Source of the DNA: Acidimicrobiia bacterium
GTDB lineage: Bacteria; Actinomycetota; Acidimicrobiia; IMCC26256; BP-133
Direction of reading: 5' to 3'
Length of the DNA stretch: 64,000 bases
NCBI GenBank assembly: GCA_044867425.1
Contig: JBIOUX010000164.1
Span: forward strand, 1,367-65,366
Shown: positions 6,654 to 39,726 of the stretch, piece by piece
How the letters are laid out: each line of letters opens with the position of its first letter
Numbering within the stretch: position 1 is the first letter of the stretch
The notes under the pieces: generated by a model
Database searches by the model: none
Seen by the model: the letters and a program-made list of their open reading frames with translations, nothing else
Told to the model about the DNA's origin: nothing
Made by a program: the position numbers and the translations under genes

Positions 6654-8681
6654 CTACGTGGCGCGATTCGCCACCATGGTGAGCACGTCGTAGGCGGCCA
6701 CCACCGCCCCCTCCTGGTTGACCACCTCGGTGTCCCAGCGCACCTCGCCGTAGCCCGCTCCCTCCCGGGGTGACTTGGCCTTGCAGGTGAAGACCACGTG
6801 GAGGGTGTCGCCGGGGTACACGGGGGTGGTGAAGCGCAGCCGGTCCAGGCCGTAGTTGGCCAGCACCGGGCCCGGATCGGGCCAGACGAACAGGCCGGCG
6901 GCGGCCGAGATCACGAAGTAGCCGTGGGCCACACGCCCCTTGAAGATGGGGCTCTGCTGGGCCGCCTCCTCGTCCATGTGGGCGTAGAAGTTGTCGCCCG
7001 TCAGGTCGGCGAAGCGCTCGATGTCCTCCAGGGTGATGGTGCGCTCCCCGCTGACCAGGGTGTCGCCCACGGCCAAGTCCTCGAAGTGCCGGGTGAAGGG
7101 GTGGGCTTCGCCCTCGTTGCGGGCGGCGCCGGGCATGAACTGCCCGGTGATGGCGGTGAGCACGTCGGGGCCACCCTGGACGGCGGTGCGCTGCAGATGG
7201 TGGTGCACCGCCCGCACGCCGCCCAGCTCCTCGCCGCCGCCGGCCCGCCCCGGCCCGCCGTGCACCAGGTGGGGCATGGGTGAGCCGTGGCCGGTCTGGG
7301 TCTTGCCGCTGCGCTCGTCGACCACCAGCACCCGGCCGTGGTGGGCGGCCAGCCCGAGGGTGAGGGTACGGGCCTCGCCGGGGTCGGGGGTGAACACCGA
7401 CGCCACCAGGCTGCCGCCCCCGAGACGGGCCAGGTCGATGGCCTCGTCCAGGTCTGCGTAGCCGATGACCGTCGACACGGGCCCGAACGCCTCCACGTCG
7501 TGGATGGCGGGATGGGCGGGGTCGCGGGCCACGAGCAACGTGGGGGCCAGGAAGGCACCCCGCTCGGCGTCGGCCCCCACCGGCTCCACCTTGGTGTCGG
7601 TGACGATCTCAGCTCCGTCGGTCAGCTTGGATACCGCCCGGCCGACCTCGTCGCGCTGGTCGAGGCTGGCCAGGGGTCCCATCCGGACCTCCTCGTTGCG
7701 GGGGTCACCGATGGTGGTCCTGGCCAGGCGGGCGGTGAGGGCGTCGATGACGGCGTCGACATGGCCGGCGGGGACGAGAGCCCGGCGGATGGCGGTGCAA
7801 CGCTGCCCCGCCTTGGTCGTCATCTCCCGGGCCACCTCGTTGACGTAGAGGTCGAACTCGGGCGTCCCCGGGGCCGCCGCCGGGCCGAGGATGGAGGCGT
7901 TGAGCGAGTCGGCCTCGGCGTTGAAGCGCACCGAGTGGGCCAGGACGGTGGGGTGCGACCGCAGGCGCGAGGCGGTGGAGGCCGAGCCGGTGAAGCCCAC
8001 CGAGTCCTGGCCGTCGAGATGGTCGAAGAGATCGCCCACCCCGCCGCAGAGGAACTGGAAGGTGCCCTCGGGGAGGATGCCCGAGTCGATCATCAGCCGG
8101 GCCGCCCCCTCGGCGACGTAGGACGTCTGGGTGGCCGGCTTGGACAGGACCGGAACCCCGGCCAGGATGGCGGGCGCCAGCTTCTCGAGCATGCCCCAGC
8201 ATGGGAAGTTGAAGGCGTTGATGAGCACGGCCACGCCCTCCCGGGGCACGGCCACGTGCACGGCGGCGAAGGAGCCGTCCTTGGCCAGCACCTCGGGCTC
8301 CCCGTCGAGCAGGAACGTCTCGTTGGGCAGCTCCTTCAGGCCCTTGGAGGCATAGACCATCAGCGTGCCGATGCCGCCCTCGATGTCGAGCCAGGCGTCG
8401 GCCTTGGTGGCGCCCGACGGCGTGGAGAGGGCGTACAGCCCGTCCTTGTGCTCCATGAGGTGCTTGCCCAGCGCCTTGAGCATCTGGGCCCGCTGGTGGA
8501 AGGTCAGCCTCCGCAGCGCCGGCCCGCCCACCCGGCGGGCGTGGTCGAGGGCGGCGGCCAGGTCGGCGCCCTCGCTCGACACCCGGCCCACGTCGTCGCC
8601 GGTGGTGGCGTCGCGCACCACCGCGCCGCCTTCGGCAGGCGCGTACCAGCTTCCGGCCAGGTAGCTCTCCAGCGTCCTCAT
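6654..8681 (-). CDS. paaZ: Bifunctional aldehyde dehydrogenase / MaoC hot-dog hydratase, PaaZ-type
   Basis: 675 aa. The N-terminal ~500 aa is ALDH-like and the C-terminal ~150 aa is MaoC-like (GDNFYAHMDEEAA, RVAHGYF). The length and fusion architecture match PaaZ. Confidence 0.88.
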   Translation of the reverse strand: MRTLESYLAGSWYAPAEGGAVVRDATTGDDVGRVSSEGADLAAALDHARRVGGPALRRLTFHQRAQMLKALGKHLMEHKDGLYALSTPSGATKADAWLDIEGGIGTLMVYASKGLKELPNETFLLDGEPEVLAKDGSFAAVHVAVPREGVAVLINAFNFPCWGMLEKLAPAILAGVPVLSKPATQTSYVAEGAARLMIDSGILPEGTFQFLCGGVGDLFDHLDGQDSVGFTGSASTASRLRSHPTVLAHSVRFNAEADSLNASILGPAAAPGTPEFDLYVNEVAREMTTKAGQRCTAIRRALVPAGHVDAVIDALTARLARTTIGDPRNEEVRMGPLASLDQRDEVGRAVSKLTDGAEIVTDTKVEPVGADAERGAFLAPTLLVARDPAHPAIHDVEAFGPVSTVIGYADLDEAIDLARLGGGSLVASVFTPDPGEARTLTLGLAAHHGRVLVVDERSGKTQTGHGSPMPHLVHGGPGRAGGGEELGGVRAVHHHLQRTAVQGGPDVLTAITGQFMPGAARNEGEAHPFTRHFEDLAVGDTLVSGERTITLEDIERFADLTGDNFYAHMDEEAAQQSPIFKGRVAHGYFVISAAAGLFVWPDPGPVLANYGLDRLRFTTPVYPGDTLHVVFTCKAKSPREGAGYGEVRWDTEVVNQEGAVVAAYDVLTMVANRAT

Positions 8682-29121: not shown

Positions 29122-29790
29122 CTAACGGCGCTTCGCTGACCTGAGGGGGCGGCGACCGCGTCGGTTGAGGACGCCGGCGACGTCGATGGTGTGGGTGCCG
29201 TAGGGATTGATCGCCTCAAAATGGCCGGGGCTGGTATGGGCGATGGCTTCTTCGCTGATCTCGTGGCCGTCGGCCCGTTCGGCATCGATGGCGTCTTGGA
29301 TGTAGCCGGTGGTGGAGAGGATGCAGGCGTTGGTCACCAGGGTGAGGCAGAGGGCCTGGGCGGTCTGGTCGTCGTGGTGGTGGTAGCGGAGGTCTCCGGA
29401 GTGGGCGAAGGCGAGGAAGCGGCGGAGGTCGTTGAGGGACTCGCCCTTGTTGAGCTGCCGGCCGATCCGCCGGCGGAAGGCCTCGTCGGTGAACCAGCGC
29501 AGGGCGTGGACGGTGCGCAACAGCTTGCCGTGTTCGAGGAGCGCCTTGGCGAGGGGTGCTGGCGGGACCCGGCCTGAAGCTTGGCCACGAGCAGGGAGGC
29601 CGAGACGTAGCCGAGTTTGAGCGAGCCGGCGATGCGCAGGAGTTCGTCCCAGTGCTCGGCGATGAGATCGATCTGGGCGTGGTGGTCGAGGAGCGGGCCT
29701 GCCCGGGGCCAGCCGGTGTAGCGACCCGGCGGATGGGGGCGCCAGAGCTGCCGCTCGGTGAGTTTGGCGATCCGGGGAGCCGATGCGTCG
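29122..29790 (-). pseudogene. tnpA: Tn3-family transposase, C-terminal ~220 codons only, with a frameshift
   Basis: Frame B covers 29122-29556 (AKALLEHGKLLRTVHALRWFTDEAFRRRIGRQLNKGESLNDLRRFLAFAHSGDLRYHHHDDQTAQALCLTLVTNACILSTTGY...). Frame A covers 29557-29790 (APRIAKLTERQLW...IAEHWDELLRIAGSLKLGYVSASLLVAKLQAGSRQHP). The shift is at the G-run 29553-29556. There is no homology upstream of about 29790. Confidence 0.8.
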
Positions 29791-30004
29791 CCAGGATGCA
29801 GGCATCCTTCTCATCTCACCCTTTGGTCACGCCCGCGATCGTTGCGGCACCTGATGGAATCCGGTGCGCTACGTCATCCGTGCGCCGTCTCGGTGGTGTG
29901 GTATTCGATGCCGCACCAGGACCGGCCTTCGACAGCAAAATGGAGCTCCGAAGGTTTACCCCTGGTAGGGGGAATCGCGACACCTGAACGACCCCAGAGG
30001 AGGA

Positions 30005-30870
30005 GTGGGTTCCCCGGTCATGAAAGAGGCTCCCGGTCCTAATCAGGCTGACGGTGTGGACGGCGAGCAGAAACACGCAAGGGTTCCTCAACGCCGCAAG
30101 TGGCCGTTCGTCGTCGGCAGTGGCGTTCTCCTCGCCACCGTCGCTGCCTGGGGCTGGGATGTCTGGCTCCCTAACTTTCGTCCGGGCCTCCGGGCGGGTG
30201 AGGAGTATGGGATTGACGTCTCCAACCACCAGGGAAGCATCGATTGGGGTCGTGTAGCCCGGGACGGCATCTCGTTCGCGTACATCAAGGCCAGTGAAGG
30301 CGGGGATTTCATCGACCGCCGCTTCGCCGACAACTGGGCTGGGCCAGCGAGGCGGGGATCGCACGTGGCGCCTACCACTTCTACACCCTCTGCACGCCAG
30401 GGAACCTCCAGGCCTGGAACTTCCTCCGGACCGTGCCGGTTGACTCCAACTCACTGGCGCCCGCGGTGGACTTGGAACTCAAGGGCAACTGTCGGGAGCG
30501 ACCTGACGGCGTCACTGTGGAACGTGAACTCACGACATTCCTGCGTAGCGTCGAGTCCACGATGGGCAAGGTGATGGTCCTCTACGTCGGTGACGACTTT
30601 GAGGACCGGTACCCCGTCCGCACATCGTTCCAGCGGCCCCTCTGGCACCGACGCTTCCTACGCCGGCCCGATGTCGACGACTGGGTCATCTGGCAGGTAC
30701 ACGGTTCCGCGCGTGTCGACGGCGTGAAAGGTCGTGTGGATTTCAACGTGATGCGCCAACCCCCAAGACGCCGAACTGCCCCACCAAGTAGGCCTCGCGC
30801 TCGTGTATCGTCCCTCCAACCCCTCCTCAACAGAAAAGCACGCTCGCAACCACGACTGTCGACGAGCTGA
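30005..30870 (+). pseudogene. GH25 muramidase (lysozyme) with N-terminal TM anchor, disrupted by a -1 frameshift
   Basis: Frame 2 reads GIDVSNHQGSIDWGRVARDGISFAYIKASEGGDFIDRRFADNWAG. The continuation EAGIARGAYHFYTLC...APAVDLELKG...WVIWQVHGSARVDGVKGRVDFNV is in frame 1. The junction is at GGG 30341-30343. Confidence 0.75.
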
Positions 30871-31342
30871 CCTTTCGTGACGCAGCTCTGATCAGTCGTT
30901 TCTCTTCAGAGTCTCGAGAATCATCAACGAAGAACCCGGACGCGGAATCCAAAGAAATACAGGCACCGCTCTTCGAATCGATGGCAGCGTTGCGACTCGT
31001 GACCTTCCATCCTTGGGCACGAAGGGGCTCAAGGATGGCTGCCATACCTTCTTCAGCGCTCCTGAGCCCCTTGAATGAGAGAACGACCAACCGAGTCTTT
31101 TGCTCAGCTGAGCCGCCCCCTTGGACGCTCTCGTTAAGAACGATCTCCGCCGAAGAAGGAAGAGGGCCGAGGATGCTGAGCTTCGGCGCTGGGTGCGTAC
31201 GATTCCACAGCCCCATGGCCACCACAAAGAAGACAAGAGACAGTGTGACGACGGCTAGGATCATCCATAATATTCGACGGGCAGCACTGCCCCGCCTCGC
31301 CTTACGACCCTCGGTGTGGTGCGCGACCGCCGAACTGTTCAC
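30827..31342 (-). CDS. Membrane-anchored hypothetical protein (171 aa) in lower-GC block
   Basis: The ORF has the N-terminal TM helix ILWMILAVVTLSLVFFVVAMGLW. It is last in the Rhs-strand gene string. One 60-nt line here counts only 28 G+C. Confidence 0.5.
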   Translation of the reverse strand: MNSSAVAHHTEGRKARRGSAARRILWMILAVVTLSLVFFVVAMGLWNRTHPAPKLSILGPLPSSAEIVLNESVQGGGSAEQKTRLVVLSFKGLRSAEEGMAAILEPLRAQGWKVTSRNAAIDSKSGACISLDSASGFFVDDSRDSEEKRLIRAASRKVSSSTVVVASVLFC

Positions 31343-31629
31343 GACTTGTACTCCTTACTCCGCGAGATCTGGTTGGATAGGCGGTCATAGCTCTTGCCTC
31401 GGGGTTTGGCGGCCTTCCCGTTGAATTTGGTGGCCCGCAGATCCGAAATCCTGCCCTCACCAAAGCCATAGGCGATGAATGCCTCGCGGTCAGACAAGCC
31501 ATACTTGTTCTGGAACTCCGCGAGGTACTCAGCGGCCATAGCGATGGCGAAGCCGGTGTCATAAACAAGCTTCTTACGCGCTGTCCTCGTGTCTATGCCT
31601 GCGAGACGGGCAGCGACGTCGGGACGCAT
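31339..31629 (-). CDS. Hypothetical protein (96 aa)
   Basis: The ORF stop overlaps the next gene's start (ATGA-type overlap at 31339-31342). No motif was recognised. It conflicts with the 31574-31771 ORF over 56 nt. Confidence 0.4.
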   Translation of the reverse strand: MRPDVAARLAGIDTRTARKKLVYDTGFAIAMAAEYLAEFQNKYGLSDREAFIAYGFGEGRISDLRATKFNGKAAKPRGKSYDRLSNQISRSKEYKS

Positions 31630-31771
31630 CTGACCGATTTGCCGCCCAAGAGAGAAGGGGCGTGGTGAGCGCCATTTCGCTGTCAGGCAGAGCGATGAGA
31701 GCTAGGGCGTAGGCAAGAAGACCACCCAATGCGGACAGCAGCACACCGCCTAGATCGCGTTTAGTTGCCAA
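31574..31771 (-). CDS. Possible small TM protein (65 aa)
   Basis: The N-terminal 30 aa are hydrophobic (GGVLLSALGGLLAYALALIAL) and the rest is Arg-rich. It overlaps the neighbouring ORF, so at most one of the two is likely to be real as drawn. Confidence 0.25.
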   Translation of the reverse strand: MATKRDLGGVLLSALGGLLAYALALIALPDSEMALTTPLLSWAANRSDASRRRCPSRRHRHEDSA

Positions 31772-31829
31772 GCTTCACGCGTACTTTCGGTCGAAGGCTG
31801 TTCTGGTTGAATGTGAACCGTAAGCTCAC

Positions 31830-32195
31830 CTAGCCCTTGGCGCAGCTCGGCCCTCTGATGTCGAACGTCCGGCGGTCATCGTCCGAATGTGGAACAGGGA
31901 GCAATTGCCCGATGGCACCATCGACTGCTGTCGCCGACAAGGTCAGACCGTCGGCATCGTTGTCGAAAACCGAGAAAGCAACCGCTCTGCCTGGAGCAAT
32001 ACGCTCACCCCGTGTAGTGGCCATGTCCTCCGGCTGCGCCGAACCGGATTCTCGAACTCTGACCCAGACCTCATGACTGCACTGGTTCGAGACGATCAAT
32101 GTCTTCGCACGATCCCCCGGAAGGCAGGCCGCCAGGGCCGCGCTCGAACACAGACAAAGCGCTATCCGAAACAAGAGCCTCGAGGGTCGAGACAT
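31830..32195 (-). CDS. Lipoprotein (121 aa), candidate immunity protein for the Rhs toxin tip
   Basis: The start MSRPSRLLFRIALCLCSSAALAAC carries the lipobox LAAC. The start codon at 32193-32195 lies 13 nt downstream of the Rhs stop (32209-32211), on the same strand. Confidence 0.55.
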   Translation of the reverse strand: MSRPSRLLFRIALCLCSSAALAACLPGDRAKTLIVSNQCSHEVWVRVRESGSAQPEDMATTRGERIAPGRAVAFSVFDNDADGLTLSATAVDGAIGQLLPVPHSDDDRRTFDIRGPSCAKG

Positions 32196-32208
32196 CAAGG
32201 GAATAGGC

Positions 32209-35200
32209 TCACGCCGAGCTAGTGCCATATCGACGGTTGACGCTGTAGTTCGGTTCGGTTGTCTCGCCTCGGACCTCTGGACAACCACCGCCGCCTCGTG
32301 CTGTGTACGCTTCCCGCTCATACTTGTTCCGGCACCCTGTCCCGCGCTTAGCCGCCTCGATCAGGTACTTGATCCCGAATTTGTCCCCGTACTTCTCCCA
32401 TTGTCCTACGTGAACGAGTTCGTGAGCCAGCAGGGAATCGCACGATCCCCCGCAGAAAATGAAGTGGCCATAGGTGACGGCACCAGCGCCGGGATCGGCA
32501 CTGGGAAGCCGCTTGACGTTTTGCACACAGAACACCGGTTGGCCGCTCTTGCTCCGTGCGCACTCGGTGACGACGCCTCCCGAGTTCGCCACGAGTCGGT
32601 TCCTGGCAAGATTGTCCGTGATGTTTGGTCCCTTCGAGTTGACAGGTTTGCAGGCCTCCCAGATTCCGAAGGGACCTCGCACCTTCCTATACCCGGGGCC
32701 ACATCCGTTCTTGCCCTTGCCTTTGGGGGCGTGGCCGTCGTCGTAGTAGCCGACGGGGTTGGCGGCTGCGTAGAGGTAGCGGTTGCCGGTGAGGGCATCG
32801 ACGCCGAGAGCGAGGTCCAGGCCGCCGGCGACGAAGCTGTCTTCGGTGGTGAATCGGCGGATGCTGGGGTCGTATTGGCGGTCTTTGAGGATGAGCGCTC
32901 TGGTTGTACCAGCGGAGCCGGGTGTGCGGTCGGTGAGGGCGTGCTGGTAGCCGAGGGAGGAGCGACCGTAGCTGGAGCTGGTGGTCTTGCCGGCGCCGCC
33001 GGTCTTGGGTTGGCCGTAGGGGTCGAAGGCGGCCTGTTCGAGCACCACCCCCGTATCGTCGCAGACGGTGCCGACGTTGCCGGCCAGGTCGCCGAGGAGC
33101 CAGTTCCAGGTGGCGGTGGCGTTGCGGTCGCCGGTGGAGGTGCGGTGGGATTCCTGGGCTACTGCTTGGCCGGTGTCGTCGGTGAGGTAGCGGACCATGG
33201 TTTGGCCGGTGCCGTCGGTTTCTTCGGCGAGGGTGTCGCCAGAACCCCAGTAGAAGTAGAGGGTGGTCTTGGCCGAGCCGCTCTCGAACGGGTCCGTGCG
33301 GGCGATGAGCCCACCATCGGCGTCGTAGACGTAGTTGATGTCGTATTGGTTGAGGGTCTTGTCGTCGTGGCCGGCGGCGTGGCCGGCCGGGTCGTAGCTG
33401 GTGCTTCGAGTGGCCGACGGGTTCGAGGGGCAGCTGAAGACGCTGGTGTAGCCGAAGTAGCGGCTGGTCTCTTCGCCGAGGGCGTCGTACCAGAACTTTT
33501 CGCAGTCGGCCTCGTAGATGAGGCTGGAGTAGACGGTCACTCGGCTGGTGAGCCGCCCATCGGTGAATGTCGAGGTGGCGGTGGTCCGGGTGGAGCCGCT
33601 GCCGGCGGTGGCGCCGGTGCGGGCGATTTCCTGGGTGATGTTGCCGCCGTCGTCGAGGGTGTAGACGGTGTTCTGGGAGCTGTCGGACGTCTCGGCGAAG
33701 GGCGCCACCCAGCTGGTGAGCCGGTTGAGGGCGTCGTAGGCGAACTTGGCCGTCCCGCTGGTGGTCGAGCTGGCCCCGGGCTGACGGAGGGCGACGGCCT
33801 CTTGGGTGCGCTGGCCGCCGTCGTCGTAGAGCACCCCGGTGTGGGAGCGCAGCACGTTGGCGCCCGCATTCCAGGTCAGCGAGGTGGGGGCGCCGTTGCG
33901 CTGGTAGTCCCACGTCCCGGTGAGGGCATTGTTGTTCCGCTGGGCGGTCTTGAGCGCCCCGGAGGGGAAGTAGGCGTTGGTCGATGCCCGGCTACGCCAG
34001 TCCGTCATGGAGGTGAGCCACCCGGCCGGGGAATGGTCGTAGCTGGTGAGCCGCCCGTCCCAGGTGGCGGAGTCGAGGGCGCCGTCGGCTTCGTAGGCGA
34101 AGCTCTGGGTGCGGCTGTAGGAGGTGCCGTTGTCGGGGGAGCGCAGCGTCTGGGTTGAGCTGGTCATCCAGTTGTTGGCCGCCGCGTAGGCGAATGTCTG
34201 GGTCTTCAGGGTGGTGCCGCCGGCGGTGCAGCCGGTCGTGCCGGAGACGGTGCGGGTCACGAGGGGGTTGCCGTCGGCGTCGTAGCCGCTGGTCAGGTCG
34301 CCGGCGCCGTCGGCGTAGTTGCAGGTGGCCAGGGTGGTGCCGGCGGTCTCGTTCTTGGCGACCTCGGACTGGAGGGTGCCGTCGGGATTGTAGACGGAGG
34401 CGACCCGGCGCACGTTGGTGGCGCCGTCCTTGTCGAGCCGTTCGGTCTGCCGTCCCTCGCCGTCGTAGCTGTAGGCCACGGTGTGGCTGGGGTTCTCCGG
34501 GTCCTTGGTCTGGGCGGAGAGCCGGCCGAGGGCGTCGTAGCGGTAGAGCGACTCCAAGGTGGCGCCGGCCCCGGTGGGTTGGGCGGTGCGCACCTGGTTG
34601 CCAGCCTGGTCGTAGCCGACCTCGGCGTCGACCCAGGTGGTGGCCGTCTTGTAGCGGCGGGTGCGGGTCACCTCGGCGAAGGGGCTGTAGGTCTGTTCGG
34701 TGGTGTGGGAGAAGGTGCCGACCTTGCCCGGCCCCTTGGTCTGGAGCGGCTCGCCGTGGGCGTTGTAGGCGTACAGGGTGGTCTGGGTCTGGGTGGCGTT
34801 GGCGATCACCTGCTGCTGGGCCACCGCCCCGGAGGGGGTGTAGGTGAAGGTGGTGCGGGCTCGTTCGTTGGTGGTGTTGCCGGCGGGGGCGTCCACCTGG
34901 GTGACCCGTCCGGCGGTGTCGTAGCCATAGTCGGTCACGGCCCGGTCGATGCTGTTGGCGGTCTGGCCGGGGGCGTCGATCTGCTTGAGCGTCCGGTTGG
35001 GGGTGTAGGCGAAGTTGATCTGGCTACTCGATCGAGGGGTCGTCTCGGCGGTCTTGGCGCCGTCGTCGGCGTAGGTGACGGTGGCGACTCGCCTCGGGTC
35101 GGTGGGGTTGGCGCCGGGCCAGGAGGCTTGGGTCTGCCAGTCGTTGTTGTCGTAGGTCCAGATGGTGGTGAAGTCGTCGGCGACGCTCGGGGTGAGCTGG

Positions 35201-38200
35201 CCCCGGGGGGTCGTGTCCCTGGTCTTGTTGTCGTTGGCGTCGAAGGCCGACGTGATCCGGTTCCCCTTGGGATCGACCATCTCGACGAGGTTGTCGCGGT
35301 CGTCGTAGCGCCACTTGGTGATCCGGTTGTCCCGGTCGGTTTCCTTCACCGTGGGGCCGTAGGGGCTGTACTGGAACGTTTTGGTCTTGGCGGCGGCGTC
35401 GGTGATCCGAGTGGGGGCTCCGGTGCGGTCGTAGGCGCCGTTGGCGGCATCGGCTGTGTCGCCGTAGGTGGTCAGGTCGTCGGCGGGGTAGAGGCCGTCG
35501 TTGGCGGTTTCGCCCCGGGGGCCGTCGACGGTCTTGAGGGCTCCGGAGGTGTAGTAGGCGAAGGTGGTCGTGCGGTCGCCGGTGCACACGCCGGTGCTGC
35601 TGGAACAGGAGGGGGCCTGCGCGGCGCCGTCCGAGCGGTAGCGCTCGATGACGCTGCGGAGGTTGCCGGTGGCCGCGTCGGGGTCGAAGTCCACTACCCG
35701 CTGGGCGGTGTCACCGGAGGCGTAGGTGGCCTTGAGGAGGTCGGCGACCATGTAGCAGTAGCCTTCCTCGGTGACGTTGGCGTTGCCGGGGGCGGGATCG
35801 GTGCAGCCCGACGGGTGGCGCCAGGCGGCGTCGTAGCGGTAGGCGAGCTTGTGGGTCACGGCCACCTTGGGGGCCCCGGTGGGCAGGTCGTTGCGGCCGG
35901 GGTCGTTGGGGGCGGGTTCGGTGATCTCCACCAGGAGACCCAAGTCGTTGTACTTCATCTTCGTCTCGTTGCCGAGCCCGTCCTTCTTGGAGTAGAGGCG
36001 GTTCTCCTCCCAGGAGAACTGGCGGGTCACCGCCCCGGCGCCGAAGCCGGCGTCGATGATGGCGATGATGTTGCCGCCGGCGATGCGCCGGTCTGCCCCC
36101 GTGGGTTGGATCGCCCCCCGGCCCGAGGTGCGGTAGGTGACCTGGTCGGCCGCCGGGGAGGTCACCACCGTGTCCTGCTGGCCGGTGGTCGGATCCGGGG
36201 TGCCGTAGGCGAAGGCCCACGTCTTGGGGGTGGGCTGGGGGCTCTGGCGCCGGTCGGTCAGCGTGGTCATCTGGGCGGAATAGCCGCTGCCCGTGTAGGC
36301 GAAGCGGGTGGTGTTGCCCCGCCCGTCCTTGACCGAGGTGAGCTGCCCGCTGGTGTAGGCGAACTCGGTGGTGCGGGCGGCGTCACTGCCGCTCTGAGCG
36401 TTTTCGTTCACCTTCCACAGGCGGCCGTTGGCGTCGTAGACGAAGTCCACCCACCGCTCGTAAGAGCGGGTGGCGCCGCTCACCGGCTCCACGTCGGTCA
36501 CCCCCTGCAGGGTGGTGATCCGCGACAGGCGCCCTGTCGTGGCGTCCCAGGTCAGGCTGGCCACCACGCCGTTGCGGTTGTGGCTGATCGAGCTCAGGCG
36601 CACCTGGCCGGCGGCCAGGTTGTAGTCGAAGGTCAACGTGTCGCCGCGGCGGTCCCGGATCGAGGTGACCCGCCACGTATTGGTGGTCAGTCCCAGGGCG
36701 GGCTTGACCACCTTGAGGTTCTCCGCCTTGTAGATCACCCCGTCGGGTCGGACGAGCTCGTAGGCCGTGACCACCCCGCCGCTGACGACCTCCCGAACTC
36801 GCAGGCTCACCCCCGGCGGGGAGTCCCACCGTGATCCGATGCCGCCCTTGCGGATGAACCGCTGGGTGGTCCCGTCGCCGTCGGTGAACTCCAGCAGGTA
36901 GCCGGCGATGGTCCCTGCCCCGTCGACCACGGTGGCCGACGCCGCGGTCATCGGCGCGGCCACGTCGAAGTCCTCCAAGGCGCCTTCCACGCCGTCGAGG
37001 CCGGCGTCGAGGTCACTCACCGACAGCGACCAGCCCTGGCTCAGCCCGTTGTCGTGCAGCACGCTCGACTGGCGCTGGGAGTTGTAGACGTGGCGGATCA
37101 CCGTATTCAGCCCCTGGTTGGGGATCGTGGCGTCGTCGAAGCTGGCCGTCAGGTTGCCCGAACGCAGCTGCACGTAGCCCGTTCCCGACGAGCCGAGGGG
37201 GAACGACTTGTAGGGGGCGAACTGCTCCAGGCCGACCTGGTCGGACTGGGCCACCATGTCGGGCAGCAGGGTGGGGGAGAGCGTGACCGGATCGGCGGTG
37301 GAGTCGATGCAGATCGGCCCGTAGACCTGATCGGTGGTGTTCTTGTTGCCGGCCTTGTCGACGGTGGCGACGTGGAACCAGTAGGTGCCGTCGGCGTTGA
37401 CCGGCACCGTGTAGGTGGCGCTGAGCCCGGTGGTGTCCACCGTGTTGTCGGGAGCGGCCGCCTGGTCGTTGTTGAACACCCACGAGTAGCCCAGCACCCC
37501 CGAGGTGACGTCCGCGCCGGCGAGCCAGTTCATGCTGATCGTCCGGATCGAGGTGCACAAGTACTTGGCGTGGCTACTGGTGGTGATGGTCGGCGCGGTC
37601 GGCGGGGTGCTGTCCACCCAGATCCCGTAGTGGCGGGCAGAATCGGACCACCAGCCGGCGTTGTCCTTGGCCCGGGCGTGGACGTACCACTGCCCGTCGG
37701 CCGTGATCGAGGTGCTGTTGGTGTAGCTACCGGTGCTGTTCACCGTCGCGCCGGGGAGCGTGGAGGAGGACTGGTCGACTGATGCCGAGTACCCGGCGAT
37801 GCCGCTGGTGTCGCCCGACGGACCGCTGATGGCGGCGGCAACCGTCCGGCTCGAGTACCACTGCGCGCCCGGGGGGCTCTCCACTCCATGGCTGGAGCTC
37901 GTCAGGGTCGGTGTCCCCGGTTTGACGGTGTCGACGGTGAAGCTGGCCCAGACCGGTCCGCTGCGCTGGCGGAAGTCGTCGGCTTCTGCCGACCAGCTGT
38001 GGTAGCCCTGGCCGAGGGCGCCGGTGGTGACGCAGCCCCGGCCGTTGTTGCCCAGCGTGGCGCTGTTCCCGGACCAGACCTGGGTGCCGCCGCTGTTGTA
38101 GACCCGGAAGACGACGTAGCCGGTGTCGGCGCTGCCGGGGTTGCCCAGGTTGGGGTCCGTCCATGTCGCGCACAGCTGCGGCGTGGTGGTCGTCTGGTAG

Positions 38201-39726
38201 CCGCCGTTGGGGGCGAGGGCGCTGGCGGTGGGGGGCAGGTTGTAGACGACCCGGATGTAGGAGAGGTTGAGGAGGTCCTCGTCGGAGATGAAGGTGAAGA
38301 AGCTGTAGGGCTCCCCGCCGCTGTCGACCACGATGCCCCGGTTGTTCCAGCCGCTCTGGGAGTAGTGGGTCCAGTTGTGCACCCAGGGTTGGATGTCATG
38401 GGCGACGTACCCGCTGGCGCCCGGCCCGTAGCACTTGGAGTAGTTTCCGTCGCACAGCCCGCTCGAGAAGTGGTTCGGGCGGGTGTTGAATGTCACCGTG
38501 TTCGGGTCGTAGGGGTCGGCCACCGGCCAGAGGACGTAGCGGCTGGTGGGGTTCTGCCCCTGGATGTAGCGGTACGCGACCCATTGGCCAGTGAGGATGT
38601 TCTGGTTGTTCGCCGCGCTGAGGTCGTAGAGGAAGTAGCTGTCGTACTCCACGGTGCAGCAGGGGTAGCCGGTGTAGCCGGCCTTGGTGACGAAGCCGCC
38701 GTTGGCGGGGTCGTACTGGCCGCCCAGCGACTCGGCCCAGGTGCCTTGCTGGGTCCAGGTGGGCTGGTTGCTGCGGACGTACGAGTCCCACGAGTCGCCC
38801 CAGTCCTTGGGGAAGCGCACGTCGGGGTCGATCTTGACCGGCCACACGGTGGCCGGGTCGTCCAGCAGGCTCCGGGGGGCCTCCACCTCCACGACCAGAC
38901 CGGCGCCGTCGTCGACCAGGCGCACCGCCACCGGCGCCTGGCGGGGCTGTTGTCCGGTGGCCGGGTCGCCGCTGGAGTCCCAGGCCGCCCCTTGGTTGGG
39001 GATGGACGCGACCCGGATCCCGGCGGCGTCGTAGAAGCCGAAGCTGCCGTCGGCGCCCTGGTGGGCGGCGACGCCGGAGAGCTCGAGCGGGAAACGGAAC
39101 ACGCCGCTGCCCGCTGCGGCTGCGTTGGGCAGGCTGAGGATTTCCTTCACGACGTCGCGGCCCACCGTGTACTCCACGTCGGCGCCGCCCAGCAGACCGG
39201 GGTAGCGGACGGTGTTGCGGTCGGTCGCCGCCGCCACCGATGGCAGCATCCCCTCCAGGGTGAACCCGACGGACCAGGCGTCGGTGCCGACCTGGACCAG
39301 CGGGCCGCCGCCGGAGACGCCGGCGAAGCTCGCCGTGATCGGGCCGGAGCGGTTTCTGAATCGGCCGAGCCCGTCGGAGATGACAGTGGCGTCGAGTGGC
39401 ACCCAGCGCCCGTCCGGCGCCTGCCAGTTGACCGGCCCGGCATAGGCGAACAGCTCCCCGTTGCCGTCGGGGCGGCGGAACACGTTCGTGGTGTCCGTAC
39501 GCTGCAGCAGTTCCAGATCGGGCGGGTCCAGCGGTCCCACGTCCAGCAGGGTGGCTGTCGCCCACGGCCCCGGCGGCGGGGGGAGCGGCGGCGGTTCCTC
39601 CGCTGCTGCCGGACGCACCGGCAGACCGGTGGCCAGCACAGCCACCAGCAGGCTGAGGGTCAGCGCCCGAACGCTTCGCCCGCCCTGCCCCGAGCGCCCG
39701 CGCGTGAGGATCTTCGACAGCTTCAT
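32209..39726 (-). CDS. Rhs/YD-repeat polymorphic toxin, Sec signal peptide, WapA-like architecture
   Basis: 2505 aa.
- Signal peptide: RALTLSLLVAVLATGLPVRPAAA.
- N-terminal DNRLRE-like carbohydrate-binding-type domain (LWPVADPYDPNTVTFNTRP).
- Two Ig-like modules (VDTVKPGTPT, VDSTPPTAPT).
- Dozens of YD repeats (YDANGRL, YDALGRL, YDGEGRQ, YDADGNP).
- Core end: DRQYDPSIRRFTTED...NRYLYAAANPVGYY.
- A 171-aa C-terminal tip containing HELVH. Confidence 0.92.
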   Translation of the reverse strand: MKLSKILTRGRSGQGGRSVRALTLSLLVAVLATGLPVRPAAAEEPPPLPPPPGPWATATLLDVGPLDPPDLELLQRTDTTNVFRRPDGNGELFAYAGPVNWQAPDGRWVPLDATVISDGLGRFRNRSGPITASFAGVSGGGPLVQVGTDAWSVGFTLEGMLPSVAAATDRNTVRYPGLLGGADVEYTVGRDVVKEILSLPNAAAAGSGVFRFPLELSGVAAHQGADGSFGFYDAAGIRVASIPNQGAAWDSSGDPATGQQPRQAPVAVRLVDDGAGLVVEVEAPRSLLDDPATVWPVKIDPDVRFPKDWGDSWDSYVRSNQPTWTQQGTWAESLGGQYDPANGGFVTKAGYTGYPCCTVEYDSYFLYDLSAANNQNILTGQWVAYRYIQGQNPTSRYVLWPVADPYDPNTVTFNTRPNHFSSGLCDGNYSKCYGPGASGYVAHDIQPWVHNWTHYSQSGWNNRGIVVDSGGEPYSFFTFISDEDLLNLSYIRVVYNLPPTASALAPNGGYQTTTTPQLCATWTDPNLGNPGSADTGYVVFRVYNSGGTQVWSGNSATLGNNGRGCVTTGALGQGYHSWSAEADDFRQRSGPVWASFTVDTVKPGTPTLTSSSHGVESPPGAQWYSSRTVAAAISGPSGDTSGIAGYSASVDQSSSTLPGATVNSTGSYTNSTSITADGQWYVHARAKDNAGWWSDSARHYGIWVDSTPPTAPTITTSSHAKYLCTSIRTISMNWLAGADVTSGVLGYSWVFNNDQAAAPDNTVDTTGLSATYTVPVNADGTYWFHVATVDKAGNKNTTDQVYGPICIDSTADPVTLSPTLLPDMVAQSDQVGLEQFAPYKSFPLGSSGTGYVQLRSGNLTASFDDATIPNQGLNTVIRHVYNSQRQSSVLHDNGLSQGWSLSVSDLDAGLDGVEGALEDFDVAAPMTAASATVVDGAGTIAGYLLEFTDGDGTTQRFIRKGGIGSRWDSPPGVSLRVREVVSGGVVTAYELVRPDGVIYKAENLKVVKPALGLTTNTWRVTSIRDRRGDTLTFDYNLAAGQVRLSSISHNRNGVVASLTWDATTGRLSRITTLQGVTDVEPVSGATRSYERWVDFVYDANGRLWKVNENAQSGSDAARTTEFAYTSGQLTSVKDGRGNTTRFAYTGSGYSAQMTTLTDRRQSPQPTPKTWAFAYGTPDPTTGQQDTVVTSPAADQVTYRTSGRGAIQPTGADRRIAGGNIIAIIDAGFGAGAVTRQFSWEENRLYSKKDGLGNETKMKYNDLGLLVEITEPAPNDPGRNDLPTGAPKVAVTHKLAYRYDAAWRHPSGCTDPAPGNANVTEEGYCYMVADLLKATYASGDTAQRVVDFDPDAATGNLRSVIERYRSDGAAQAPSCSSSTGVCTGDRTTTFAYYTSGALKTVDGPRGETANDGLYPADDLTTYGDTADAANGAYDRTGAPTRITDAAAKTKTFQYSPYGPTVKETDRDNRITKWRYDDRDNLVEMVDPKGNRITSAFDANDNKTRDTTPRGQLTPSVADDFTTIWTYDNNDWQTQASWPGANPTDPRRVATVTYADDGAKTAETTPRSSSQINFAYTPNRTLKQIDAPGQTANSIDRAVTDYGYDTAGRVTQVDAPAGNTTNERARTTFTYTPSGAVAQQQVIANATQTQTTLYAYNAHGEPLQTKGPGKVGTFSHTTEQTYSPFAEVTRTRRYKTATTWVDAEVGYDQAGNQVRTAQPTGAGATLESLYRYDALGRLSAQTKDPENPSHTVAYSYDGEGRQTERLDKDGATNVRRVASVYNPDGTLQSEVAKNETAGTTLATCNYADGAGDLTSGYDADGNPLVTRTVSGTTGCTAGGTTLKTQTFAYAAANNWMTSSTQTLRSPDNGTSYSRTQSFAYEADGALDSATWDGRLTSYDHSPAGWLTSMTDWRSRASTNAYFPSGALKTAQRNNNALTGTWDYQRNGAPTSLTWNAGANVLRSHTGVLYDDGGQRTQEAVALRQPGASSTTSGTAKFAYDALNRLTSWVAPFAETSDSSQNTVYTLDDGGNITQEIARTGATAGSGSTRTTATSTFTDGRLTSRVTVYSSLIYEADCEKFWYDALGEETSRYFGYTSVFSCPSNPSATRSTSYDPAGHAAGHDDKTLNQYDINYVYDADGGLIARTDPFESGSAKTTLYFYWGSGDTLAEETDGTGQTMVRYLTDDTGQAVAQESHRTSTGDRNATATWNWLLGDLAGNVGTVCDDTGVVLEQAAFDPYGQPKTGGAGKTTSSSYGRSSLGYQHALTDRTPGSAGTTRALILKDRQYDPSIRRFTTEDSFVAGGLDLALGVDALTGNRYLYAAANPVGYYDDGHAPKGKGKNGCGPGYRKVRGPFGIWEACKPVNSKGPNITDNLARNRLVANSGGVVTECARSKSGQPVFCVQNVKRLPSADPGAGAVTYGHFIFCGGSCDSLLAHELVHVGQWEKYGDKFGIKYLIEAAKRGTGCRNKYEREAYTARGGGGCPEVRGETTEPNYSVNRRYGTSSA

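Follow-up and report, generated by a model that had tools for sequence, protein, structure and literature searches.

The DNA analysed here, referred to as the window, is a 64,000-nucleotide (nt) stretch of the Acidimicrobiia bacterium assembly GCA_044867425.1 (contig JBIOUX010000164.1, positions 1,367 to 65,366). Its minus strand carries a gene for an Rhs/YD-repeat polymorphic toxin of 2505 amino acids (aa), and this study is concerned with the C-terminal tip of that protein, a Cys-rich and predicted zincin-like domain, and with the small lipoprotein gene located immediately behind it. The features on which the argument depends are as follows.

32209..39726, minus strand: Rhs/YD-repeat polymorphic toxin gene, 2505 aa (open reading frame, translation, RHS/YD matches and a match to solved Rhs proteins)
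39601..39726, minus strand: predicted Sec-type signal peptide, aa 1-42 (read from the translation)
32731..32883, minus strand: non-canonical end of the Rhs core, aa 2282-2332, DRQYDPSIRRF...NRYLYAAANPVGYYDDGH (alignment A5 and TIGR03696)
32212..32730, minus strand: putative C-terminal toxin tip, aa 2333-2505 (A2333-A2505), 173 aa (in the comparison with P0093, P0094 and L003, no longer core-like after DGH)
32275..32703, minus strand: folded Cys-rich zincin-like domain, aa ~2342-2484 (AF2 models, 91 homologues and a weak PF13699 match)
32401..32424, minus strand: HELVHVGQ (H2435, E2436, H2439 and Q2442), predicted zinc-binding and catalytic HExxHxxQ motif (conservation)
32317..32319, minus strand: E2470 in N.YE.EAY, predicted third zinc ligand of the gluzincin type (invariant in 86 of 86 homologues)
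31830..32195, minus strand: candidate immunity gene for a 121-aa lipoprotein with the lipobox LAAC (translation and synteny)

The body of the protein is that of an Rhs toxin: nine stretches of it match PF05593 RHS_repeat in Pfam (E 1.6e-16), five stretches match the TIGR01643 YD repeat in NCBIfam (E 7.8e-16), and the solved Rhs proteins 8qja and 7q97 are matched as well. Searches of PDB sequences with the N-terminal 960 aa, or with the last 336 aa of the core, returned no match. The GC content at third codon positions (GC3) of the whole open reading frame (ORF) is 0.92. At the N-terminus, the translation reads as a basic n-region, a hydrophobic stretch (ALTLSLLVAVLATGL) and a likely cleavage site between AAA and EE, and a similar N-terminus is present in the orthologous Rhs protein of another locus, L003. 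Judging from these sequences, the Rhs protein is probably Sec-exported and its producer is probably a monoderm. The region that follows (aa ~43-1000; 36700-39600, minus strand) comprises ~950 aa without a confident family, the only matches in Pfam and NCBIfam being weak ones to Ig-like and OmpL47-type beta-barrel domains; presumably, this N-terminal region mediates surface attachment or target binding.

The C-terminal tip and its family

HELVH (aa 2435-2439; 32410-32424) is the sole HExxH of the whole Rhs protein. The tip also stands out by its Cys content, with eight Cys in the 171 aa from K2335 onwards (4.7%) versus 17 in the 2334-aa body (0.73%). An earlier, sequence-only reading of this DNA had taken the tip to be these 171 residues with eight Cys. 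The Cys count is correct, but homologues carrying other tips set the junction after H2332, giving a tip of 173 aa. The end of the core, NPVGYYDDGH in place of PxxxxDPxGL, and HELVH were all found where that reading had put them, on the minus strand.

When the tip was used in an exhaustive phmmer search of 1.84 billion representatives (E<=1e-3), 91 homologous cluster representatives were obtained, and in nearly all of the matches listed the domain is C-terminal, including in proteins of 1840-2399 aa. In an alignment of 86 homologues (A1), on which the counts given below are based, H2435, E2436, H2439 and E2470 are invariant and Q2442 is 98% conserved, with E2470 located 31 residues past H2439 on the last helix of the predicted structure. 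Six of the eight Cys (C2389, C2400, C2425, C2429, C2465 and C2482) are 78-92% conserved. These two patterns of conservation argue that the motif in the tip is not there by chance. Where Cys are lost among the relatives, they are lost pairwise, 2425 together with 2429 and 2465 together with 2482, and not as a set of four. Such losses fit three disulfides better than a Cys4 metal site, and we infer the pairing from them.

In a search of Pfam with the tip alone, the sole match was PF13699 (formerly DUF4157, now eCIS_core), at E 0.0085 and 16.7 bits with a cut-off of 22. Among the relatives, 62 of 86 match PF13699 at E<=0.1, about 11 reach the gathering level, and the best match has an E of 2.4e-6; no Pfam family besides PF13699 recurs among them, and an NCBIfam scan of the tip gave no match. 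The resemblance to DUF4157 and to zincins, which the sequence-only reading had pointed out, is therefore real for the family but weak for the tip taken alone, and the profile search named there as a check has brought up no recurrent non-peptidase family. Zhang et al. (2012, PMC3482391) defined the PVC-metallopeptidases by the signature HExxHxxQ plus a distal Glu, which is also carried by the family of the tip. In their description, the fold comprises three strands and three helices; the His residues share a helix, and the Glu is placed on a later one. On the basis of these sequence comparisons, we regard the tip as a divergent, unannotated and Cys-rich branch of the PVC-metallopeptidase/DUF4157 superfamily.

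The predicted structure of the tip is consistent with this assignment. A 103-aa core of the tip was modelled by AlphaFold2 (AF2) with a predicted local distance difference test score (pLDDT) of 93.6 and a predicted template modelling score (pTM) of 0.86, and the full tip with a pLDDT of 85.4. The order of elements in the models is a beta-hairpin, a helix, four strands, the HExxH helix and the distal-Glu helix; helix 47-63 of the core model contains HExxH and helix 85-92 contains E87, and the full-tip model agrees, so that a confident prediction places HExxH and E2470 on separate helices. The full-tip model has mixed confidence before ~2342 and a low-confidence tail of ~20 aa after ~2484, both of them outside the secondary-structure elements. 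The modelled topology is that of a small alpha+beta, zincin-like domain whose His pair shares one helix, the Glu being placed on a later helix. The zincin fold predicted for the tip rests on the motif, this topology and the profile matches, not on a structural match.

Small relatives of the tip domain are also carried by phages, as two unnamed viral homologues of ~115 aa were found in BFVD as matches to the core model of the tip (A0A3T0IEK8 and A0A5Q2W6E3; E 1e-4 and 8e-3, ~30% identity, TM up to 0.67). A search of phage-genome proteins with the tip gave two weak Thermus-phage matches to hypothetical proteins, and no link of the tip family to lysis cassettes was found in that search.

The altered core end and the exchange of tips

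In Rhs proteins, the self-cleavage apparatus consists of PxxxxDPxGL together with two Asp and an Arg, and teneurins, which are without the motif, are not cleaved (PMC8765631; PMC13018210). The protein in the window is like the canonical Rhs, TcC and bacterial teneurin-like YD-shell toxins of those studies in having a YD-repeat shell, a core end with the Arg and the first Asp, and a polymorphic tip at a fixed junction with a (candidate) immunity gene immediately downstream; Sec-dependent export is a likeness to Gram-positive WapA and teneurin-like proteins. The difference lies in the core end, which begins with DRQYDPS at 32883 and finishes with NPVGYYDDGH (aa 2323-2332; 32731-32760). Alignment with canonical termini and with those of its own clade (A5) showed that the RFxxxD motif is kept, with R2283 and the first catalytic Asp, D2296, but that an 11-aa insertion (LDLALGVDALT) makes the spacer between the two acidic residues longer and that the clade has [DE][DN]G[HY], here YYDDGH, where others read DPxG[L] in the second motif. 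PxxxxDPxGL, as defined by the two catalytic Asp plus the Arg, is absent from this core end. TIGR03696 (Rhs core) scores 25.2 bits on it, below the cut-off of 32.5, with profile positions 2-72 of 76 covered and the last four unmatched.

The same type of terminus is found in related Rhs proteins, namely NPVGFFEDGH in the L003 orthologue, NPVGFYEDGH in P0093 and NPVGFYENGY in P0094. The latter two were found by a search with the core end; their termini are followed directly by AP and WP, respectively, and then by unrelated tips, an SLT (lytic transglycosylase)-like tip in P0093 and a tip of a third type in P0094. Judged by these four termini, the non-canonical end is a property of the clade and is not special to the gene in the window. 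Interchangeable tips begin at one constant junction, directly after G[HY]. In P0094, aa 110-331 consist of a Gly/Ala-rich, membrane-like segment and then an uncharacterised C-terminal domain.

A core terminus without DPxGL raises the question of whether the zincin-like domain could be a peptidase for processing or release, or else a factor in maturation, instead of a toxic module; in that role, it might compensate for the degenerate self-cleavage motif. In line with this, Zhang et al. give most PVC-metallopeptidases a releasing role (PMC3482391), and in the literature on extracellular contractile injection systems (eCIS), DUF4157 is a marker of unknown role, situated at the N-terminus or in the centre of effectors. 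We nevertheless consider a processing function quite improbable because: only the ~20-aa low-confidence tail is C-terminal to the domain, which leaves no other toxin that it could release; P0093 and P0094 bear unrelated tips (SLT-like in P0093) on the same odd terminus, so that release must be independent of this tip; a downstream lipoprotein gene that is dedicated to the tip and co-varies with it is a hallmark of a toxin; and it was Zhang et al. who named the C-terminal copies behind RHS repeats as toxins (PMC3482391).

Composition changes at the junction as well. GC3 is 0.93 in the body versus 0.69 in the tip, the change occurring at about aa 2335-2350, and the lower-GC stretch of the window extends from about 29750 to 32750. 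In L003, a contig of Actinomycetota MAG113 (metagenome-assembled genome) and the closest locus, the orthologous Rhs protein of 2514 aa is 68% identical in the body and 60% identical in the tip; its gene shows a GC3 break from 0.91 to 0.60 and is followed by the same immunity gene. Two more features lie further downstream in the window.

31345..31656, minus strand: 5'-truncated remnant of a displaced or orphan SLT-like Rhs tip (tblastn to P0093 and a weak Pfam SLT match)
30827..31342, minus strand: probable immunity gene of the SLT-like remnant, 171 aa, with an N-terminal membrane anchor (homology)

The remnant corresponds to the last 112 residues of an SLT-like tip; it is 58% identical to aa 201-312 of P0093 (tblastn, E 9e-33) and matches Pfam SLT weakly (E 6.5e-4). 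Over 116 aa, the product of 30827-31342 shares 31% identity (E 5e-13) with that of the ORF which directly follows P0093 in L083. The two genes are a displaced or orphan toxin-immunity pair, and the presence of a truncated SLT-like tip with its own immunity gene just downstream supports tip replacement at the Rhs core end. This, together with the drop in GC3 and the similar break in L003, supports the earlier suggestion that a tip less rich in GC fits tip replacement. An ORF of 65 aa at 31574-31771 has no homologue and overlaps, in a different frame, with the SLT remnant; it was treated as spurious.

A broader proposal can be made for the clade, although we think it unlikely. The clade might have dropped the canonical aspartyl self-cleavage, relying either on a modified Glu/Asp cleavage or on an uncleaved display of the tip as in teneurins; it might be specialised for toxins working outside the target membrane, such as a disulfide-bonded zincin and an SLT-like lytic transglycosylase; and the Cys-rich zincin might cleave an Actinomycetota-specific cell-wall or lipoprotein substrate. 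If this were true, the clade would provide a monoderm Rhs weapon needing no membrane translocation step. As the clade still swaps tips with its degenerate motif, the need of DPxGL for tip release is directly testable.

The downstream lipoprotein and the site of action

The lipoprotein gene starts 13 nt past the Rhs stop codon, and its product has conserved Cys near both ends of the mature part and no match in Pfam or NCBIfam. Related genes lie behind other tips. The gene directly behind the tip of P0001, the closest stand-alone tip cassette (L001), encodes a lipoprotein that is 35% identical (E 4e-28); in L003, the gene that follows the orthologous Rhs encodes a product with 47% identity to the lipoprotein of the window; and a fragment of a homologue follows P0003 at the end of contig L002. 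A hidden Markov model (HMM) of the L001, L002 and L003 lipoproteins gives a weak link (E 3e-4) to the lipoproteins that follow more distant tips, in L015 and L016. The tips in L011, L013/14 and L017 are also trailed by small lipobox-containing or membrane-anchored ORFs with an N.C ... C layout, for which the HMM showed no homology to the window immunity protein, only the architecture being shared.

As the lipoprotein recurs behind the three closest tips, it is likely to be the immunity protein of the tip, in so far as sequence comparison can tell. A partner that is tip-specific, exported and membrane-tethered suggests that the tip probably acts outside the cytoplasm. The signal peptides on stand-alone relatives of the tip (described below) and the SLT-like nature of the adjoining orphan tip, with its membrane-anchored partner, also speak for extracytoplasmic action. 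The idea that the tip is extracytoplasmic, disulfide-stabilised and directed at the envelope, which had been put forward from the sequence, thereby gains indirect support from the lipobox of the partner, the pairwise loss of Cys, and the Sec signals on both the stand-alone relatives and the Rhs protein.

Most characterised Rhs tips act in the cytoplasm, and the present tip has a CxxxC pair just before the HExxH helix. These two points would agree with a tip that is toxic in the cytoplasm, whose conserved Cys bind structural zinc and form no disulfides, and whose neighbouring lipoprotein is not its immunity protein. Such an arrangement is very improbable, however, when it is considered that: the losses of Cys affect the two pairs named above (2425+2429 and 2465+2482) and do not follow a Cys4 unit; the one downstream partner that is conserved is an exported protein with a lipobox; and the stand-alone relatives are Sec-secreted, while the Rhs protein is itself Sec-exported in an organism that is probably a monoderm.

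The family extends beyond Rhs proteins. According to a genome scan for tip loci with a profile of 8 close sequences, most of its occurrences are in uncultured Actinomycetota, and more distant relatives are present in Planctomycetota and other phyla. At L004-L010 and L012, which come from Microthrixaceae, Paraconexibacteraceae and other Actinomycetota MAGs, the match (at about 8001-8290 of each locus) is to stand-alone proteins of 145-307 aa, which carry a signal peptide and the same six-Cys zincin-like domain. Secreted stand-alone relatives also include P0006 and P0096. Since the proteins at L004-L010 and L012 are without an obvious immunity gene downstream, the tip family is not always a toxin; these proteins may be secreted housekeeping proteases or toxins against distant organisms.

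This leads to the question of whether the Rhs protein in the window is an interbacterial weapon at all. It could instead be a surface or secreted scaffold with a housekeeping or nutrient-scavenging protease, the lipoprotein being a chaperone or inhibitor that controls the wall remodelling of the cell itself. Many of the relatives do stand alone as small secreted or membrane proteins and have no immunity gene, among them a large Rhodococcus/Nocardiaceae group, and a mycobacterial DUF4157 gene adjoins the peptidoglycan hydrolase gene ripC (PMC12067865). We assign a low probability to this explanation, given that the locus has the full syntax of a polymorphic toxin, with a constant core, swappable tips at a fixed junction and a partner gene for each tip, and that a displaced tip remnant, a cassette-like composition break and mobile-element debris are found alongside. 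All three alternatives considered here have some support, and all fit the syntax of the locus less well than does a toxin.

We therefore think it probable that this is a Sec-exported Rhs protein with a C-terminal zincin-like toxin, which acts on the envelope of a neighbouring cell, and that the producer is guarded by the tethered lipoprotein. The events might be pictured as follows. An uncultured, high-GC Actinomycetota bacterium would export the Rhs/YD-shell toxin by the Sec route; its last 173 aa would form a compact, zinc-binding domain resembling zinc metallopeptidases, with HExxHxxQ, a distal Glu and three predicted disulfides; and this tip, possibly cleaved at the junction, would act as a toxin beyond the cytoplasmic membrane of a neighbouring cell. 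Its presumed peptidase activity would be directed at a protein of the envelope or at the peptides of the cell wall, with peptidoglycan peptides and lipoprotein tethers as the obvious candidates, and the membrane-anchored lipoprotein of the producer, encoded 13 nt downstream, would neutralise the tip. The lower-GC cassette of tip and immunity gene would have joined the core end by recombination, displacing an older tip of the SLT-like and peptidoglycan-lytic type, of which the 3' part persists downstream together with its immunity gene. What the sequences themselves show is the layout of the protein, the conservation within the family, the synteny of tip and partner gene, the shift in composition and the variety of tips at one junction.

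Several observations weigh against this picture. With regard to the fold, the tip remains under the PF13699 gathering cut-off (16.7 bits, or 18.6 when trimmed, versus 22); Foldseek searches of the PDB with both confident models found no solved zincin and no C-terminal domain of VgrG2b (VgrG2b C-ter, see below) at E<=0.001; the tip-family profile had no match among PDB sequences at E<=10; and SprT-like matches in BFVD were non-significant only. With regard to function, the role ascribed to most published PVC-metallopeptidase domains is that of a processing peptidase and not of a toxin (PMC3482391), and no obvious immunity gene is present at the stand-alone secreted relatives of L004-L010 and L012. 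The second Asp motif of the core end is degenerate, with Glu in three of the four clade members, which makes tip release uncertain. Finally, L003 has the same tip at 60% identity, so that the swap must be old, and unameliorated GC is weak evidence of recent transfer.

Related metallopeptidase toxins and neighbouring genes

PVC-metallopeptidase domains C-terminal to RHS repeats were recognised as probable toxins already in 2012, and many PVC toxins were found without immunity genes (PMC3482391). The tip resembles the PVC-metallopeptidase/DUF4157/PF13699 domains (PMC3482391; Geller et al. 2021, PMC8213781) in having HExxHxxQ plus a distal Glu in a small alpha+beta domain. It differs from them in that: it lies under the Pfam cut-off, with six conserved Cys and an extra N-terminal hairpin and helix; it is located at the extreme C-terminus of a Sec-exported Rhs protein, and not in an N-terminal or central position in eCIS cargo; and it has a dedicated lipoprotein partner, with no eCIS genes nearby. 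The sequence-only reading was thus right in stating that DUF4157 is usually N-terminal in effectors, but the position as an Rhs tip is not new, having been described in 2012 (PMC3482391).

VgrG2b C-ter, from the Pseudomonas aeruginosa H2 type VI secretion system (T6SS), is toxic only in the periplasm and in a HExxH-dependent manner; its immunity protein, PA0261, is envelope-located and is a lipoprotein in Enterobacteriaceae, and orthologues of the domain are annotated as DUF4157 (Wood et al. 2019, PMC6899460). The likeness to the present locus consists of a C-terminal HExxH domain on a delivery protein and an envelope-located immunity protein, the latter being encoded downstream of the tip here. 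By analogy, VgrG2b C-ter would be the best functional model for the tip. The two systems differ in delivery, by a T6SS spike in diderms versus a Sec-exported Rhs protein, and the tip has no sequence or Foldseek match to the solved domain of VgrG2b. In addition, neither the conserved Cys nor this lipoprotein family has been reported for VgrG2b, and the immunity families are unrelated as far as tested. The Tox-MPTase1-5 tips (Zhang et al. 2012, PMC3482391) are alike in being small HExxH toxin domains behind RHS repeats; membership in these families was rejected, as the tip has no Pfam match to them and three of the 86 relatives match Tox-MPTase4 weakly (best E 0.014).

In view of the RHS-borne PVC-metallopeptidase toxins of 2012 (PMC3482391) and VgrG2b C-ter in 2019 (PMC6899460), the novelty claimed for the tip at the outset was overstated. 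What is new is: a Cys-rich subfamily under the Pfam threshold, which is almost wholly labelled "hypothetical" in databases; a cognate lipoprotein family; the occurrence of the subfamily mainly in uncultured Actinomycetota; and an Rhs clade with an altered self-cleavage motif. To our knowledge, VgrG2b C-ter is the only one among the DUF4157/PVC-metallopeptidase domains that has been tested, and the function of these domains is largely open. The locus defines a compact subfamily of ~140 folded residues in monoderm Actinomycetota, and the pair of tip and lipoprotein should be tractable for finding the substrate of such toxins. The practical payoff would be modest, consisting of a better annotation of a "hypothetical" family and possibly a new envelope-targeting enzyme.

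The genes flanking the Rhs locus encode transport and metabolic proteins, and no T6SS, type VII secretion system (T7SS) or eCIS genes were found in the flanks. At the edge of the low-GC region lies a C-terminal fragment of a Tn3-family DDE transposase (29122-29814, minus strand; PF01526 positions 266-388 of 389, E 1.5e-34), which is mobile-element debris beside the toxin cassettes. Inside the low-GC stretch, and convergent with the Rhs operon, a GH25 muramidase gene (30005-30870, plus strand) is split over two frames, with PF01183 positions 1-51 followed by positions 82-180 in the next ORF; it is probably a frameshifted pseudogene. Elsewhere, in L083 (1-11054), the orphan SLT-tip cassette P0093 is accompanied by two integrase genes and adjoins a 2485-aa Rhs gene whose product has CBM96 and PA14 domains, which suggests that tip cassettes travel with integrative elements.

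The large, unannotated Rhodococcus group mentioned above, which also includes other Nocardiaceae, comprises P0115-P0200 together with P0072, P0086 and P0090. Its members, of ~105-140 aa, share the HExxHxxQ-E core, and some are mislabelled "Fe-S oxidoreductase" in UniRef. P0072, P0086 and P0090, the three whose sequences were inspected, do not show the pattern of six Cys, and in two of them the N-terminus is hydrophobic.

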